DNA of 64,000 bases, from assembly GCA_951406725.2 (NCBI GenBank), contig OX597833.1:58466001-58530000 (forward strand). The letters run 5' to 3'. Origin of the DNA: Octopus vulgaris (Eukaryota). Below, one piece after another: positions 3,218 through 53,011 of the stretch. Below the pieces are notes generated by a model that worked only from the letters and a program-made list of their open reading frames with translations, made no database searches and was not told the DNA's origin. The position numbers were made by a program, and so were the translations under genes. Positions within the stretch are counted from its first letter, which is position 1. Each line of letters opens with the position of its first letter.

Positions 3218-3442
3218 AGGCAACAGAACCACAGTCCAGGGGATAGAAACTAGGGAAAGCCTGAGACTATGTAGCAGCAGCTGCACAACATACTGAACTG
3301 CATACCAGAAAGTATTCACACACACACACTAATAACCCCCACCCGTGTTCTGTCTGACTGGTGACTTAGTATTTCACTTTTTCCTTCATCATCTTCATTT
3401 TCTTCCTTTTTTTTTTTTCTTTTTTTCTCTTCCTCCCAACAG

Positions 3443-3711
3443 GTTACCTCGAAGAGGTCACAGGAGATGTGAATGCCACTTTTTACATGAGCGGCATCAT
3501 GCTCACCCTGTCTGGCGTGATTTCGCTGCCCCTCAACCGACTCAAGAACTGGCAGATGCGGCGTGACCAACGAGACTTTGAAAGGCAGCAGCAGCAGTTC
3601 CAGCAGCAACAGCAGACTGCTGCTGCCGCCAAGAAAGAAAAGCAGCGGGCAATGATGCACGTCAAACAAGCCAACGGACTCCCTTCAGACAATGTCCCCC
3701 CTGTCACATAA
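3443..3711 (+). CDS. Terminal coding exon of an MFS transporter, probably SLC16/monocarboxylate transporter (last TM helix plus polyQ tail)
   Basis: Long polypyrimidine tract and CAG acceptor ending at 3442; phase-1 frame (G)YLEEVTGDVNATFYMSGIMLTLSGVISLPLNRL resembles the MCT TM11-12 pattern G.L.D.TG.Y...FY.SG; GC3-rich codons; stop at 3709-3711. Upstream exons not seen in window. Confidence 0.8.
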
Positions 3712-5710: not shown

Positions 5711-6139
5711 ATTGGGTAAATTCTCACTCTTCATTCTCCCATCTCTGCCTCACCGAAATAAAGAAGAAAGCAAAAAAAAGGGCTGCCCACCCCTGCTTCT
5801 GTCACAGTAACTCAAACGGGATAGTCTGCGGGAATATATATTTTTCTTAATTATCTTTGTCCAACTTGGGTCTGTATTCCCTAAAAGATATATCGACAAC
5901 ATTCGTCGGAAAACTACTGTCGCTCTCTCTGCCACTCCCAGCCCACCCTCCCAGTTCTCCTGGAATCACAATTATTGGATTACAATTATCAAAGATGAAG
6001 GACTAAGTCCTAAAAAGACCATGCTTTTAGTTGTGTGCTTTCTTATATACATGAGTAAGTGGACAAGCAAAAGGAAAGGGCAACTCAGCAACTCAACAGT
6101 ACATTTAGTAGGAATTGCATGTACTTTTTAAAAGTACAT

Positions 6140-6346
6140 ATATTGAACTAGAGATAAAACCACTATTGGGCAAATCAAACAGTGAAAAACATAAACCAAA
6201 ACATTGAAATAAAATTAATTAATATATTGATTTGCCTAATAGTGGTTTTATCTCTAATTTAATATATATATCTTTATACTGTAAAATTAGATTTAATCAT
6301 AAATCTAATTTTTACCTGTAAGTTTGGATTTACTCCCTATTATTAT

Positions 6347-21499: not shown

Positions 21500-22040
21500 G
21501 TCCTGGGTTTCAATGTAATCGGCTATCCCCTGGAAATTTTCAAGGCCAATTCTGCCAAGGTCGACTTTTCCTTTCATTCTTTTGAGGGTTGATAAAATTT
21601 GTACCTCTTACACACTGGAGTCGATGTAATCAGCTATCCCCTTTCCCCTGGAAATTTTCAAGGCCAATTTTGCCAAGGTCAACTTTTCCTTTCATTCTTT
21701 TGGGGGTCGATAAAATAAGTACCTGTTACACACTGGACTCGATGTAATTGGCTATCCCCTTTCCCCTGGAAATTTTCAAGGCCAATTCTGCCAAGGTCAA
21801 CTTTTCCTTTCATTCTTTTGGGGGTCGATAAAATAAGTACCTGTTACACACTGGACTCGATGTAATTGGCTATCCCCTTTCCCCTGGAAATTTTCAAGGC
21901 CAATTCTGCCAAGGTCAACTTTTCCTTTCATTCTTTTGGGGGTCGATAAAATAAGTACCTGTTACACACTGGAGTCGATGTAATCAGCTATTCCCTTTCC
22001 CCTGGAAATTTTCAAGGCCTTGTTCCCTAGAGTAGAAATA
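21500..22040 (+). repeat. ~119-bp tandem repeat derived from the SINE A core, about 4 copies
   Basis: GGAAATTTTCAAGGCCAATTCTGCCAAGGTCAACTTTTCCTTTCATTC...GGGGTCGATAAAATAAGTACC repeated. Confidence 0.9.
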
Positions 22041-29940: not shown

Positions 29941-30349
29941 TAGCTGGCAGAAACGTTAGCATGCCGGGCGAAATGCTTAGCAGTATTTCGTCTGCCGTTA
30001 CGTCCCGAGTTCAAATTCTGCCAAGGTCGACTTTGCCTTTCATCCTTTCGGGGTCGATAAATTAAGTACCAGTTACACACTGGGGTCGATGTAATCGACT
30101 TAATCCCTTTGTCTGTCCTTGTTTGTCCCCTCTATGTTTAGCCCCTTGTGGGTAATAAAGAAATAGGTATTTCGTCTGTCGTTACGTTCCGAGTTCAAAT
30201 TCCGCCGCGGTCGACTTTGCCTTTCATCCTTTCGGGGTCGATAAATTAAGTACCAGTCACGCACTGGGGTCGATGTAATCGACTTAATCCCTTTGTCTGT
30301 CCTTGTTTGTCCCCTCTATGTTTAGCTCCTTGTGGGTAGTAAAGAAATA
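29941..30349 (+). mobile_element. SINE family A dimer
   Basis: Two tandem units. Confidence 0.9.
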
Positions 30350-33323: not shown

Positions 33324-33405
33324 GTCATCGTAGCCGAGTGGTTAAGGCGATGGACTAGAAATCCATTAGGGTCTCCCCACATAGGTTCGAATCCTATCAG
33401 CGACG
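33324..33405 (+). tRNA. tRNA-Ser(AGA), probably a pseudogene or retrocopy
   Basis: GCCGAGTGGTTAAGGCG ATGGA CTAGAAA TCCAT, long variable arm, GGTTCGAATCC; two acceptor-stem mismatches; TTTTT at 33412-33416. Confidence 0.85.
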
Positions 33406-33424: not shown

Positions 33425-34030
33425 AGGCTGCAAGCTGGCAGAAACGTTAGCACACCGGGCGAAATGCTCAGCGGTATTTCGTCTGCCGTTAAGTTCTGAG
33501 TTCAAATTCCGCCCAGGTCGACTTTGCCTCTCATTCTTTCGGCATCGATAAATTAAGTACCAGTTACACACTGGGGTCGATGTAATCGACTTAATCCATT
33601 TGTCTGTCCTTGTTTATCCTCTCTGTGTTCAGCTCCTTGTGGGTAGTAAAGAAATAGGTATTTCGTCTGCCGTTACGTCTGAGTTCAAATTCCACCCAGG
33701 TTGACTTTGCCTTTCATCCTTTGAGGGTCGATAAATTAAGTACCAGTTACACTCTGTGGTCGATGTAATCAACTTAATCTGTTTGTCTGTCCTTGTTTGT
33801 CCTCTCTGTGTTTAGCCCTTTGTGGGTAGTAAAGAAATAGGTATTTTGTCTGCCGTTACGTTCTGAGTTTAAACTTCGCTGAGGTCGACTTTGCCTTTCA
33901 TCCTTTCAGGGCTAATAAATTAAGTACCAGTTACACACTGGGGGTCGATGTAATCGACTTAATCCGTCTGTCTGTCCTTGTTTGTCCTCTCTGTGTTTAG
34001 CCCCTTGTGGGTAGTAAAGAAATAGGTATA
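33425..34030 (+). mobile_element. SINE family A trimer
   Basis: Three tandem units. Confidence 0.9.
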
Positions 34031-40179: not shown

Positions 40180-40567
40180 ATATTAGGGAGTATAACTCCA
40201 AACTTACAGGGAAAAATTCAATTTAGTATTAAATCAAATTTCACAATATAAATATATAAAATATAAATTTGAGATAAAACCACTATTATGCAACTCAAAC
40301 AGAGATAGACATAAACCAATACATAAATAACAAATAAAAAATATTTTTATAAAACATATAACTCAAAAAGTATAAAAATGAATGATCAATATATAATAAA
40401 CATATGTAGTTTTTTTACTTATTATATATTGATCACTCATTTTTATACTTTTTGAGATCTAGTTATGTTTTATAAACATATATAATATTTGTTATTTATG
40501 TTTTGGTTTATGCCTATCACTGTTTGAGTTGCATAATTGTGGTTTTATCTCTAATTTATATATTATA
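40180..40567. mobile_element. Fold-back element family P
   Basis: Long inverted repeat; same family as 6140 and 52705. Confidence 0.65.
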
Positions 40568-40812
40568 TCATCATCATCATCATCATCATCGTTTAACGTC
40601 CGTTTTCCGCGCTAGCACGGGTTGGACGGTTTCGACCGGGGTCTGGGGAGCTCGGGACTGCCCCAGGCTCCAGTCTAGTCTGGCAGTGTTTCTACAGCTG
40701 GATGCCCTTCCTAACGCCAACCACTCCGCGAGTGTAGTGGGTGTTTTTTACGTGCCACCTGCACAGGTGCCAGAGGGGTCTGGCATCGGCCACGTTCGGA
40801 TGGTGCTTTTTA
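40568..40812 (-). mobile_element. SINE-like family C 3' part
   Basis: (CAT)n GTTTAACGTCCG... ending at GGATGGTGCTTTTTA. Confidence 0.9.
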
Positions 40813-40813
40813 T

Positions 40814-41254
40814 GGGGGGGTGCAGAAATATAGGGGAGCACCAGTGGGAGGGGTGGTTCAGAGGACAGGTACTAGGCAAGTAGAACGTAGGATATCGAGA
40901 GAGGGGTAATGCATGGTGAAATAGCGTATTGAAGAGGGGGTTCAAAGAGTAGACACCTATAATGGTGGTGGGGGGTGCAGAAATATAGGGGAGCACCAGT
41001 GGGAGGGGTGGTTCAGAGGACAGGTTCTAGGCAAGTAGAACGTAGGATATCGAGAGAGGGGTAATGCATGGTGAAATAGCGTATTGAAGAGGGGGGTTCA
41101 AAGAGTAGACACCTATAATGGTGGTGGGGGGTGCAGAAATATAGGGGAGCACCAGTGGGAGGGGTGGTTCAGAGGACAGGTTCTAGGCAAGTAGAACGTA
41201 GGATATCGAGAGAGGGGTAATGCATGGTGAAATAGCGTATTGAAGAGGGGGGTT
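40814..41254. repeat. 155-156-bp unit, ~2.8 near-identical tandem copies
   Basis: TGCAGAAATA at 40821, 40976 and 41132. Confidence 0.95.
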
Positions 41255-42457
41255 TCTTTACTTTGGTCAAATGGAAAGGTCTCTGTTGGCGTATTAGTGA
41301 AGTCAAACTCTGCTAGGATACACTTGGAAGAGCTGGTTACCAGTGGGCAGGAAGTGTAGCCATTATATTTAGACTTAAAGTCATTGCTTCCTTTCATTTT
41401 TGCCATCAAGTTTTTAGACAGAACATCACACTGACCGGCAGCAGCAGCCGCTGTCTTTGATGTAGGAATATTTGTACAGTCTCCAACGCCAAAGATGTTG
41501 TCGTATTTCACGTGTTGCAATGTCTCTTTATTCACGTTCAGGAAACCTGCTGCATCACTCAATACACTCTTACTGATGACATCGGGAGCCGACATTGGTG
41601 GGGTCACATGAAGGAAATCATATTTAAAAGTTGCTGTTTCACCACTCTCACTGTCTAGCTTCTTAAAAATTGCCTCTCCAGTCTCTGGTCGCACTTCAAT
41701 AAGACTGTGTTTGAAGTTCACATGAATACCGCGGTCTTTGGCAATCACATACAGCTTTTCAGAATAGTGTTTCACAACAAACATCACACCCAGAGAAGTG
41801 TTGAATAAAACGTTGGCTTTATCACGCTTGCCAGTCTTATTAAAAATATTCTTCAGCTAAATACATAATCTTCTGTGGGGCTCCCCCACATTTAATGGGG
41901 GTAGCTGGTACTGTGAAAATAGCATTACCTCCTTCAAAGGCCTGCAATGCAGGAAATGTTTTGCCTACAGTTCTAATACTGTAATTGGAACAAATTCGGG
42001 GATCTGACTTCAAACCTTCAATCAAGCCTTTTACCAAGTGAAAGTTTAGTTGTAAACCTAAGGCAAGCACCAAATATTCATAATGAACCTTGCTGCCATC
42101 TTTGAGAGTAACAAAGTTTTTGTCTGGATTAAAGCCGACAACTGAATCGTTAATCCATTCACTGTTTGGTGGTATCACTGAAGCCATGGTTCTCCTGGAA
42201 TCGCTTAGTTTTTTCAGTCCTCCACCAACTAATGTCCATAATGGTTGATAGTAATGCTCCTTGTTTTTTTCGATCACGGCGACACTTCCCTTGTCTAGGG
42301 ATCGTGAAAAGGTAGATGCTATGCTAGATCCAGCGGTGCCAGCGCCGACCACGACCAATTTATAAGATCGGTCTTGTGAAGCATATCTGAGGCACTGATG
42401 AACGGTTTTCGGAAGGACATTAGTCCTTAATGTAACTGCTGAAATGTTAGAGAGCAT
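41253..42457 (-). pseudogene. SQOR: Intronless mitochondrial-type sulfide:quinone oxidoreductase copy; 1-nt frameshift at ~41842 and C-terminus missing
   Basis: VVVGAGTAG FAD motif, HYYQPLWTLVGGG, IKCGGAPQKIMYL, GDCTNIPTSKTAAA, YTSCPLVT, ETFPFDQSKE; removing one T in TATTTTTAAT joins the two ORFs as EEYFNKTGKRDKANVLFNTSLG. Confidence 0.92.
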
Positions 42458-42530
42458 TGTACTGACTGAGCATTTGACTGACTGACTAGCGGCGCGTGTG
42501 TATGCACATATAATGTATATTATACTACGT

Positions 42531-43708
<1,178 letters not shown>

Positions 43709-44674
43709 TAGTCAGAATAGTCAGAAGGAAACTAATCACCTTCCTTGAAGAAAATGACTTGCTGCCTGACACCCAACATGGTTTCCGACCAGGAAGAAGC
43801 TGCTTAACTCAGCTCCTGCAGCACTATGACTGGGTGCTGAAACAACTGCTCAACCACTCAAATGTGGAAGTCATATATCTCGACTTCGCAAAGGCCTTCG
43901 ATAAAGTCGATCATGGAATGATATGTCACAAACTGCGTGATCTTGGCATAGTTGGAAAACTAGGAGAATGGCTTCACGACTTTCTGAAGAATAGAAGTCA
44001 GGTGGTAGTAGCAAATAGTGAGCGGTGTTCCACAGGGCACTGTTTTGGGACCACTACTGTTCATAATGGCCCTCTCAGACATGCCCTCAGCCACGCGGAG
44101 AGCCACGATCACAAGTTATGCAGATGATACAAAAGTTTCACAGGCAATACAGAACCCTGAAGACACTAGGCACCTGCAATATGAGCTGGACGAAATATAC
44201 AAGTGGGCTGAAAAGAATAGCATGCAGTTCAATGCTGAAAAGTTTCAAGCTTTATACTATCAGCATGCAAAACTGAATGCAATACCCAAGGAATACACTG
44301 GACCCGGAGGGATTGCAATCCCAGAGGCACAATCAGTGCGTGACCTGGGTATTCACATGAGTGATGACGCGACCTTTCATGTACATGTTGCTAAACTGAC
44401 AATGAAATGCAGACGGCTGGCTGGATGGATTCTTAGAACCTTTAGAACAAGAGAACAAGAAACCATGATGGTCCTCTGGAAGACACTTGTCCTAAGTCAC
44501 TTTGACTATTGCTCTCAGCTATGGTCACCATCCAGTGTCAAGTTGATCACAGAACTTGAGGCGATCCAACGAAGCTACACGAAGAAGATAGCCTCCATGC
44601 AGAATGTAAGCTACTGGGAAAGACTCAAGAGATTAAAATTATATTCGCTGGAGCATAGGCGGGAAAGATATGCC

Positions 44675-44680
<6 letters not shown>
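43709..44680 (+). mobile_element. CR1/Jockey-type LINE reverse transcriptase fragment
   Basis: [45 protein letters not shown]; frameshift near 44017. Confidence 0.95.
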
Positions 44681-44718
<38 letters not shown>

Positions 44719-45433: not shown

Positions 45434-45505
45434 CTCCCCGGAGGGGAATCGAACCCCGGTCTCCCACGTGACAGGCGGGGATACTTACCACTATATTACC
45501 GAGGA
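45434..45505 (-). tRNA. tRNA-Asp(GTC), possibly a retrocopy
   Basis: TCCTCGGTAATATAGTGGTAAGTATCCCCGCCTGTCACGTGGGAGACCGGGGTTCGATTCCCCTCCGGGGAG; one T-stem mismatch; no T4 terminator nearby. Confidence 0.88.
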
Positions 45506-46199: not shown

Positions 46200-47645
46200 C
46201 CTTCAGGAACATTGTGCACTGTAGGACTAATATTTTGCATTTGTGGCACCGTTGGTGGCTAATGAGCCCTGATCTTGACAAGCATACACAACTGCAAACT
46301 CTACAAACCAAGCTTTCAAGCAGCATGTTGAAATTCTTCATGCATAATACGTCCTCTCTCAAAGGTGTCGATCCCCTCCTTAGCCCTTTTGTTACTGTAT
46401 TTATTTTGTGATGCTCTGTGTTTCTTTCAATTACTTTAAATATTACAAAGAATTTAGTAAAATAACTTAGTTATCACTAAGCTAGTGTTAGGAACATAAA
46501 TTGTGACTAAGGTTTGGTGGAAGATTTTAATTTAACACTTATGGAAACAAGACATTTGTACTACAGAGCCAGAGGCGGTTTCAGCTGGGTTGGTATTAAA
46601 AGGGTTAAGAATTGTTCCTCTATTATATATTTAACCCTTTTGTTACCATATTTATTTTGAGATGCTCTGTGTTTCTTTCAATTACTTTTAAATATAACAA
46701 AGAATTTAGTAAAATAACTTAGTTATCATTCAGCTAGTGTTAGGAACATAAATTGTGACTAAGGTTTGGTGGAAGATTTTTAATTCAAAACTTATGGAAA
46801 CAAGACATTTGTACTCAAAGCCAGAGCCGGTTTCTGCCGGGTTGGTATCGAAAGGGTTAATCTGCTTCCTCCATCTGTCGTGATGACAAGCATTGCTCTC
46901 CCAGTCAGTCTCCTTCATATCAGAGGCCTTTACTGAGGACTTGACACAGTCCTTAAATCGCAGCCTTGTTTTCTCCTGTGGTCTCTTTCCATTAACAAGT
47001 TCCCCATAGAGCATCTGTTTAGGGATCATGTTATCCTTCATTCTAATAATATCCCCAGTCCAACGTAACCGGTGCTTGTGCCCCATTACCTCAATACTCA
47101 AGATATCAGCTGTCCTCAGGACCTGTGTGTCAGGAGCTTTTAAAGTCTGGCTGAAATTCAGAATACATCTCAGACATCTTTGATGAAAGCATTCAAGGAT
47201 CCTTACATGAAGTTTGTAAAGGGTTCATGTCTCATATGAGTAAAGGAGCAATGTCAGTACACATGCATGGTACACAGCAATTTTTGTTTGCTTTGTGATG
47301 CCATGCTGGGGCCAGACACAAGCCTGGAGAGGCTGGAAGGAATCAGTTGCTCTCTGCAGCCTGAAAGATATTTCATCATCCAAGGAGCAAGAAAATGAGA
47401 AAGAGAGATAGAGTTAGTGATCGAAAGTGTGTGTTGCGATGATTGCCCAGTATTGTTCCTTCAACCAAGGTAGCTGGTTCCACATATGGATTTCTTGGTG
47501 CAGGCTGGAATATTACAACAGTCTTGTCTAGGCTAATGCTGAGTCCAAATGCCCTGCAAGAAGCAGAAATATGATTCATAAGTATTTGCATGTCATCTAC
47601 TGTATATGAGTGACTAAGTCACAGTCGTCTGCATAAAGGAGGTCA
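46200..47645 (-). mobile_element. RTE/BovB-like LINE 3' portion
   Basis: LLYADD region, FGLSISLDKT, HRLRWTGDIIRMKD..IPKQMLYGEL..GKR...RLRFKD; C-terminal CRVC..VCLSRSGLISHQR. Confidence 0.9.
46384..46856. mobile_element. Two adjacent TTAA-flanked (piggyBac-like) MITEs (46384-46604, 46635-46856)
   Basis: TTAACCCTTT...AAAGGGTTAA; near-identical bodies; related to the host MITE at ~11265-11893. Confidence 0.8.
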
Positions 47646-49112: not shown

Positions 49113-49299
49113 TTTAACATTTGTTTTCCAGATTGGCATGGATTGGTCATCGGTTTGGCTGGAGTTGGTCAGCTGATGAGCTGTCCAGACTCCAGTTGTC
49201 TGGTTTGGCAGGATTTCTAAGGCTCGATGTCCTTCCTGATGCCAAATACTTTATAAAGTGTGCTGGGTGATCTTACGGGCCAGTGGCACAAGTGTGTTT

Positions 49300-49890
49300 A
49301 CCTATTTCTTTACTACCCACAAGGGGCTAAACATAGAGGGGGCAAACAAGGACAGACAAAGGGATCAAATCGATTACATTGACCCCCAGTGCGAAACTGG
49401 TACTTAATTTATCGACCCCGAAAGGATGAAAGGCAAAGTCGACCTCGGCGGAATTTGAACTCAGAATGTAGCGGCAGACGAAATACCTATTTCTTTACTA
49501 CCCACAAGGGGCTAAACATAGAGGGGACAAACAAGGACAGACAAAGGGATTAAGTCAATTACATCGACCCCAGTGCGAAACAGGTACTTTATTTATCGAC
49601 CTCGAAAGGATGAAAGGCAAAGTCGACCTCGGCGGAATTTGAACTCAGAATGTAGCGGCAGACGAAATACCTATTTCTTTACTACCCACAAGGGGCTAAA
49701 CATAGAGGGGACAAACAAGGACAGACAAAGGGATTAAGTCAATTACATCGACCCCAGTGCGAAACAGGTACTTAATTTATCGACCCCGAAAGGATGAAAG
49801 GCAAAGTCGACCTCGGCAGAATTTGAACTCAAAACGTAACGACAGACAAAATACTGCTAATAATTGTGTCTGCCAGCTCACTGCCTTTTA
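49300..49890 (-). mobile_element. SINE family A trimer
   Basis: Three tandem ~184-bp units. Confidence 0.9.
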
Positions 49891-52663: not shown

Positions 52664-52704
<41 letters not shown>

Positions 52705-52711
<7 letters not shown>

Positions 52712-53011
52712 TAAATTAGAGATAAAACCACTATTAGGCAAATCAAACAGTAAAAATCATAAGCCAATACATAGAAATACAATTAATTAAAAAATATAAA
52801 ATATAAATATAAAAAATATTTTTTATATTTATATTTTATATTTTTTTAATTAATTTTTTTTTACTATATATTGGCTTATGATTTTCAGTTTGATTTGCCT
52901 AATAGTGGTTTTATCTCTAATTTAATATAATATATATTTATACTATAAAATTGGATTTAATCCTAAATCTAATTTTTTCCTGTAAGTTTGGATTTACTCT
53001 CTAATATTATT

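Follow-up and report, generated by a model that had tools for sequence, protein, structure and literature searches.

Ordinary processed pseudogenes retain their 3' end and lose the 5' end, and the locus described here raises the question of how a copy can keep the other end. An ordinary processed pseudogene has lost its introns, is near-identical to the mRNA of its parent and is flanked by a short repeat. The SQOR copy on the minus strand of Octopus vulgaris contig OX597833.1 differs from such a pseudogene, as its 5' end is kept whereas its 3' end and poly(A) are missing and a foreign tail is present. It lies within the 64,000-nucleotide stretch of DNA that was analyzed in full and is here referred to as the window. 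Read on the minus strand, the order of the parts is a 9-bp repeat, a leader, intronless SQOR, a 155-bp unit repeated 2.8 times, a SINE-like 3' fragment, (GAT)7GA and again the 9-bp repeat, and these parts are fused without spacer. The features of the locus and its flanks are as follows.

42534..42579, unstranded: (TA)23 tract, the 5' flank of the insert
42516..42524, minus strand: 5' copy of the candidate target-site duplication, 9 bp long and made up of A and T only
42458..42515, minus strand: leader of 58 nt, a putative 5' UTR; the RNA-like contig of X5 covers only 42474-42458
41253..42457, minus strand: processed SQOR coding sequence; the ATG is at 42457, and DQSKE ends at 41254 and is followed by one matching base, 41253
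41842..41842, minus strand: additional base within a T-run, which shifts the reading frame; missing from the contigs of all four runs compared
40814..41252, minus strand: tandem array of a C-rich 155-bp unit, 2.8 copies, 99% alike; a high-copy genomic tandem repeat
40591..40813, minus strand: 223-bp 3' fragment of a SINE-like or LINE-end family, here called family C; the join lies inside the internal repeat of the family
40568..40590, minus strand: (GAT)7GA tail, the same type of tail as on other family C copies
40559..40567, minus strand: candidate target-site duplication, 3' copy, 9 bp; coincides with the outer end of the palindromic element
40255..40567, unstranded: AT-rich palindromic element, here called family P, the 3' flank of the insert

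The three-part anatomy described in the initial annotation is present where that annotation had placed it in the assembled sequence of the window. SQOR and the SINE-like tail are co-oriented, as had been claimed, and there is indeed no poly(A), the chimera ending in (GAT)n. The SQOR body is intronless from its ATG to DQSKE, also as described; what had been overlooked is that its open reading frame is split by the one-base frameshift at 41842.

The SQOR portion is a processed copy of an intron-containing gene

The SQOR part of the window is the same as Octopus sinensis SQOR (P0004) at 335 of 336 compared residues and as the O. vulgaris protein at 309 of 311, and the Pfam family Pyr_redox_2 matches its first open reading frame. 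The window copy ends 40 conserved residues short of the C-terminus of the O. sinensis protein. For comparison with independent sequence, contigs from 4 of the 24 listed sequencing runs (X1, X2, X5 and X19) were aligned with positions 40420-42533 of the window, with 40558-40597 excluded as repeat. The run types are guesses by the tool, and none of the listed matching runs is annotated as RNA: X5 is RNA-like, while X1, X2 and X19 are DNA-like, and any of the DNA-like runs may be the source of the window.

In X1 and X2, the SQOR contigs break at 42261, 42087/42116, 41836/41837, 41732/41761, 41410/41439 and 41368/41397, and four of these six breaks coincide with exon edges that are implied by proteins. 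The O. sinensis and O. bimaculoides models diverge from the window just before KEHYYQ (42262), the O. bimaculoides model jumps from 41623 to near 41439 relative to the window, and in a protein alignment bird SQOR isoforms break at positions equal to 41836, 41623 and 41368. A fifth break (42087) ends on a shared GT, the break at 41732 has no explanation, and the protein-implied edge at 41623 is without a contig break in X1 and X2. Spliced paths, each flanked by 31 nt or more on either side, run across 41623 and 41439 in X1 (record 5) and across 41623 (record 21) and 42088 (record 23) in X2. Furthermore, the first junction is present in spliced form in contigs of X1 and X2 that extend through the leader as far as 42533, with a short side of 28 nt that is below the bar of the tool; these contigs would fit the presence of the insertion in both samples or parent sequence that spans the 5' repeat. 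Because breaks at exon edges and spliced paths are found in the same DNA-like runs, both a parent with introns and one or more processed copies must exist. From these alignments, we infer that the window SQOR is a processed copy that lacks at least five introns of such a parent. The initial annotation had predicted a parent with introns and an intact C-terminus, and the contig breaks at exon edges, the spliced paths and the 40 further residues of P0004 bear this out. SQOR depth varies 2-fold between contigs and for this reason was not read as copy number.

A parent that is itself intronless and shares flanking DNA had been named as the finding to look for against this interpretation. We regard an intronless parent, or a locus that is the working gene or a segmental duplicate of it, as very improbable. 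Such a reading would agree with the omission of the first ~66 residues, which the window and Argonauta have, from all three Octopus models, and with unforked exon-1 contigs that follow the window up to 42533. However, the exon-edge breaks and spliced paths in the DNA-like runs favor the initial annotation: together with a near-identical model that parts from the window at the first edge, the breaks point to an intron-containing gene of the same sequence. In addition, the window copy is without the 40 conserved C-terminal residues.

The omission in the Octopus models deserves comment in its own right. The residues absent from P0004, P0123 and P0124, the three Octopus models in the database, extend through the first FAD-binding stretch; besides Argonauta, they are found in the window (42457-42263) and in the RNA-like contig. 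SQOR exon 1 thus seems to have been overlooked in three Octopus annotations, and our guess is that a long or repeat-rich first intron is the cause. A protein search for a short octopus protein made of exon 1 only found none. As a separate observation, record 15 of X19, an SQOR contig without introns, shows a 2-base deletion and one substitution (41476, 41831) that are absent from the other runs; it may represent another processed copy or be erroneous.

Over ~1,260 nt, the window differs from the contigs by three listed substitutions (41426, 42302 and 42437) and one indel (41842), or ~0.3%, and the 5'-most contigs show one more mismatch beyond the three. The letters of the window at these sites occur in no covering contig, including contigs that span the splice junction near 41842 and 41426. 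They may represent assembly errors, private changes or contigs tracking another allele or copy, and the extra base at 41842 would be either an assembly error or a private change. On the sense strand, each of the three substitutions reads G-to-A, the direction opposite to that expected from copying of A-to-I-edited mRNA, although a sample of three is too small for inference. The SQOR copy is young and is likely a dead pseudogene.

The middle part is an abundant genomic tandem repeat

The array (41254-40815) has a period of 155-156 bp, with 2.8 copies and 99% matches. The summed contig depth of the unit relative to SQOR depth was ~960x in X1, ~540x in X2, 84x in X19 and 2x in X5, values that are crude ratios and not copy numbers. 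The 155-bp unit is an abundant genomic tandem repeat, with no other copies in the 64-kb window. The initial annotation had derived this part from a small RNA, an origin that the data do not support: an Rfam search of the unit returned no credible match (eight weak hits at E values up to 5, no ribozyme), and in the DNA-like runs the unit is a high-copy genomic repeat. The possibility that the unit is a known RNA, ribozyme or retrozyme was rejected, as Rfam gave no ribozyme and folding was weak (z = -2.6 and -0.9). In the RNA-like run X5, 97 of the 155 nt of the unit are found in one contig and part of the unit reaches a depth of 152, and transcripts related to the unit may exist.

The G-rich strand of the unit (41100-41254, plus strand) contains six runs of at least three G, which could form G-quadruplexes in first-strand cDNA. 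Elsewhere in the window, pieces of repeats 118 to 252 bp long are amplified in tandem at 21526-22019, 29983-30349, 33473-34029, 46380-46860 and 49299-49854. In view of these several local amplifications, short tandem arrays of repeat fragments appear to be common in this genome.

The 3' part is a truncated family C element with its own tail

The 3' part is a 5'-truncated retroelement that brings its own tail, 223 bp plus (GAT)7GA, giving a 246-bp noncoding tail. The window contains several relatives of ~71 to 86% identity; all family C copies in the window are 5' truncated, with other copies reaching further 5' than the one in the chimera. The tail of the chimera adjoins an AT-rich site, as do those of three of the seven other listed family C copies. 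The segment 40615-40706 is identical to record 9 of X19, which has a depth of 743 compared with 7 to 11 for SQOR in that run, and this identity to a deep contig argues for a young, high-copy tail subfamily. Judged by sequence, family C is a SINE-like or LINE-end family, its status as a SINE being putative. Metagenome, viral and plasmid collections held no match to the unit or the tail and no family C copies from outside the window, and the accessible portions of PMC5786205 and PMC4824008 do not identify the family. ARAGORN reported two tRNA-like hits in the window, at 33324-33405 (plus strand, Ser) and 45434-45505 (minus strand, Asp), which may be SINE heads or tRNA genes.

The two joins

The initial annotation had proposed that both joins be confirmed in long reads. 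In the contigs, the outcome was divided: a variant of the unit-tail join is found in one of the four runs and the SQOR-unit join in none. At the latter, three runs continue with other sequence, and X19 is without cover at 41272-41342. Record 4 of X1, record 19 of X2 and record 32 of X5 follow a spliced path through 41253 and then read 294, 28 and 233 other letters, respectively, and in these three runs the depth at 41272-41342 is that of a single contig alone. Since contigs drop minor paths, the missing join is not proof of its absence, yet X2 does retain a repeat-tail join and not the SQOR-unit join. The SQOR-unit join is located in mid-exon, with DNA and RNA contigs all matching one base past DQSKE, and shows a 2-base microhomology. 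It is unlike a splice site, as no AG precedes it in the unit. A protein search with the junction peptide returned SQOR models (3 of 3) and two unrelated repetitive proteins (2 of 2), and no protein that spans the join.

These features bear on the possibility that the parts were fused as RNA before copying, whether by cis- or trans-splicing, by read-through transcription of a parent allele with the repeat and the SINE, or by ligation of cleaved mRNA, and were then retroposed through the SINE tail. Fusions of mRNA 5' exons to LINE-1, often at splice donors, and ligation as an accepted route for U6 chimeras are described in the accessible text of PMC13174262, and part of the unit, as noted, reaches a depth of 152 in X5. 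Splicing, however, fits poorly with the lack of an AG before the join in the unit and with contigs that match one base into the next codon; moreover, none of 13 aligned proteins has an isoform break at the join, and X5 contains the normal continuation only. Ligation and template switching leave the same sequence, with the 2-base microhomology mildly favoring switching. Taken together, we consider an RNA-level fusion improbable.

The unit-tail variant is a single X2 contig that links 40813 to 40965, with a depth of 41 and a short side of 25 letters. It differs from the join in the window by ~4 to 5 more unit bases, may hold unknown letters and, by our reading, has a 3-base microhomology. It represents either a donor locus, with the tail already lying inside an array, or the window locus itself, whose C-run would then contain an error. 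As the variant join occurs once, a ready-made repeat-SINE donor, which would need only one switch, is no less likely than a double switch.

Alternatively, the assembly may have mis-joined a processed SQOR locus to a repeat-SINE locus, for which we see a small but real probability. Consistent with a mis-join, the SQOR-unit join is missing from all runs, no covering contig has the frameshift or any of the three substitutions, the repeat-tail join has a C-run that differs from that in the X2 contig, and a TA array of 1 kb is found next to the site. On the other hand, SQOR and the unit have no common repeat that could seed such an event, neither matching 9-mers nor co-orientation is expected from it, and contigs show presence rather than absence.

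Flanking sequence and the candidate target-site duplication

Between the 3' flank and the 125 nt that precede the ATG, no shared match is longer than the 9-bp repeat. Its 9-mer is present in 32 of 6,394 sliding 60-nt windows overall (0.5%) and in 5 of the 92 such windows beside (TA)8+ tracts, the chimera site included (~5%). Since 5 of 92 TA-adjacent windows carry the motif, the repeat is only moderately above chance. The target-site duplication of the initial annotation is a candidate: the 9-mer stands at both ends, but it consists of A and T only and has a chance of ~5% beside TA tracts. The element at the 3' flank (40255-40567) has two further copies in the window, at 6138-6343 and 52693-53007. 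Family P is AT-rich and palindromic, has a one-sided unique tail and lies beside TA tracts; in one of the two paralogues (52693), the end that corresponds to the insertion point also borders on a TA tract. Our guess is that it is MITE- or Helitron-like.

A rival account is a two-step history, in which a full-length SQOR retrocopy came first, its 3' end was later replaced through a repeat-plus-SINE insertion with target deletion or through microhomology-mediated repair, and the matching 9-mers arose by chance. Such a history would explain why the spliced path continues past 41253 into other sequence in X1, X2 and X5 and why the 5'- and 3'-end contigs of X1 have near-equal depth (167 and 166). 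It would also agree with spliced paths that lack the private changes of the window (the extra base and 41426), which may belong to another allele or processed copy, and the accessible part of PMC4476161 states that three-part elements can come from two independent events. In graph contigs, however, parent and copy are collapsed wherever they have an exon in common, and the continuation may be that of the parent. The two-step history further requires the chance match (~5%); the P paralogue that abuts (TA)n has the arrangement that the two flanks would have; finally, the copy is very young, which leaves little time for a second hit. We regard two steps as unlikely.

Two other features of the window were noted. 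A reverse-transcriptase fragment (43708-44716, plus strand, two frames, Pfam RVT_1) lies on the strand opposite to the chimera and beyond the 1-kb TA array. An open frame at 3370-3708 (plus strand) has no Pfam family above the cut-off and resembles the last exon of a membrane transporter.

A model for the origin of the chimera

The chimera probably belongs to a known class of retrocopies, those made chimeric by template switching. We give about an even chance to the specific account in which the young intronless SQOR copy, the repeat array and the (GAT)n tail were laid down in one event of target-primed reverse transcription with a template switch. A putative LINE enzyme with specificity for the family C tail instead of poly(A) would have primed at the AT-rich site, and 223 nt of the tail and 2.8 units would then have been copied. 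At the 2-base microhomology, the enzyme would have jumped to SQOR mRNA, 40 codons before the stop, and copying to the 5' end of the mRNA and closure with a 9-bp duplication could have completed the insertion. Within this account, one switch, with the tail and the units taken from a single read-through RNA that had the tail already inside the array, is slightly favored over two switches, with the tail and the unit taken from separate templates; each of the two by itself seems somewhat unlikely. The initial annotation had argued for a single event primed on the SINE tail with two switches. Priming at (GAT)n is plausible, but the small-RNA template is unsupported, and the repeat-tail join in X2 may be that of a ready-made donor.

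More speculatively, a tail-specific octopus LINE might routinely jump from SINE-tail RNA via transcripts of the 155-bp repeat into mRNAs, a proposal to which we attach little probability. Were it true, a class of retrocopies would be expected that are intact at the 5' end and cut at the 3' end, with a start codon and repeat-encoded C-termini. When the base at 41842 that is absent from all four runs is left out, the SQOR frame continues into the unit for 46 codons.

Comparison with known systems

If the joins are real, this locus clearly shows, in an invertebrate, how a spliced mRNA of almost full length was mobilized via a borrowed SINE-type tail, a route that has been proposed where LINEs disregard poly(A), and how a tandem repeat was moved by reverse transcription. 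A literature search at the level of titles, with subscription papers mostly outside its scope, found no cephalopod example and no description of the 155-bp repeat. For cephalopods as a whole, the question becomes how many retrocopies end in family C tails and how many in poly(A).

Tripartite chimeric retrogenes formed by double template switching, namely, WEIRD-MgSINE-MGL in Magnaporthe and B2-U6-L1 in mouse, are described in the accessible text of PMC2104539. Like these, the octopus chimera consists of three directly fused, co-oriented parts with a 5'-truncated retroelement at the 3' end and one flanking direct repeat, here a 9-bp candidate. The chimeras of that report, as far as its accessible text goes, have a full-length RNA as the 5' part, duplications that are nonsatellite and 14 to 16 bp long, and no microhomology. 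In contrast, the octopus chimera has a spliced mRNA cut in mid-exon, a putative high-copy tandem-repeat template in the middle and an AT-only candidate duplication of 9 bp.

A second parallel is provided by the U6-L2, U6-Mon-1 and U6-AnolisSINE2 chimeras of platypus and lizard, which the available portion of PMC4476161 attributes to stringent LINEs and which end in L2, RTE or SINE tails; processed pseudogenes are said there to be rare under stringent LINEs. The octopus locus shares with these chimeras the union of a cellular RNA with the tail of a LINE or SINE, terminated by a simple repeat, a short duplication (1 to 9 bp in the chimeras, a 9-bp candidate here) and the lack of poly(A). It differs from them in its passenger, a protein-coding mRNA of 1.26 kb rather than U6, and in the repeat array that lies between passenger and tail; its partner LINE and the stringency of that LINE are putative.

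Finally, 5' chimeras of mRNA and LINE-1 have been catalogued in human (PMC13174262, accessible text). As in the octopus, the 5' portion of a spliced sense mRNA and a retroelement 3' part lie under one duplication, which is here a candidate. The human chimeras mostly carry a near-full-length L1 and often end at splice donors, whereas the octopus chimera is joined in mid-exon and carries a noncoding tail of 246 bp.
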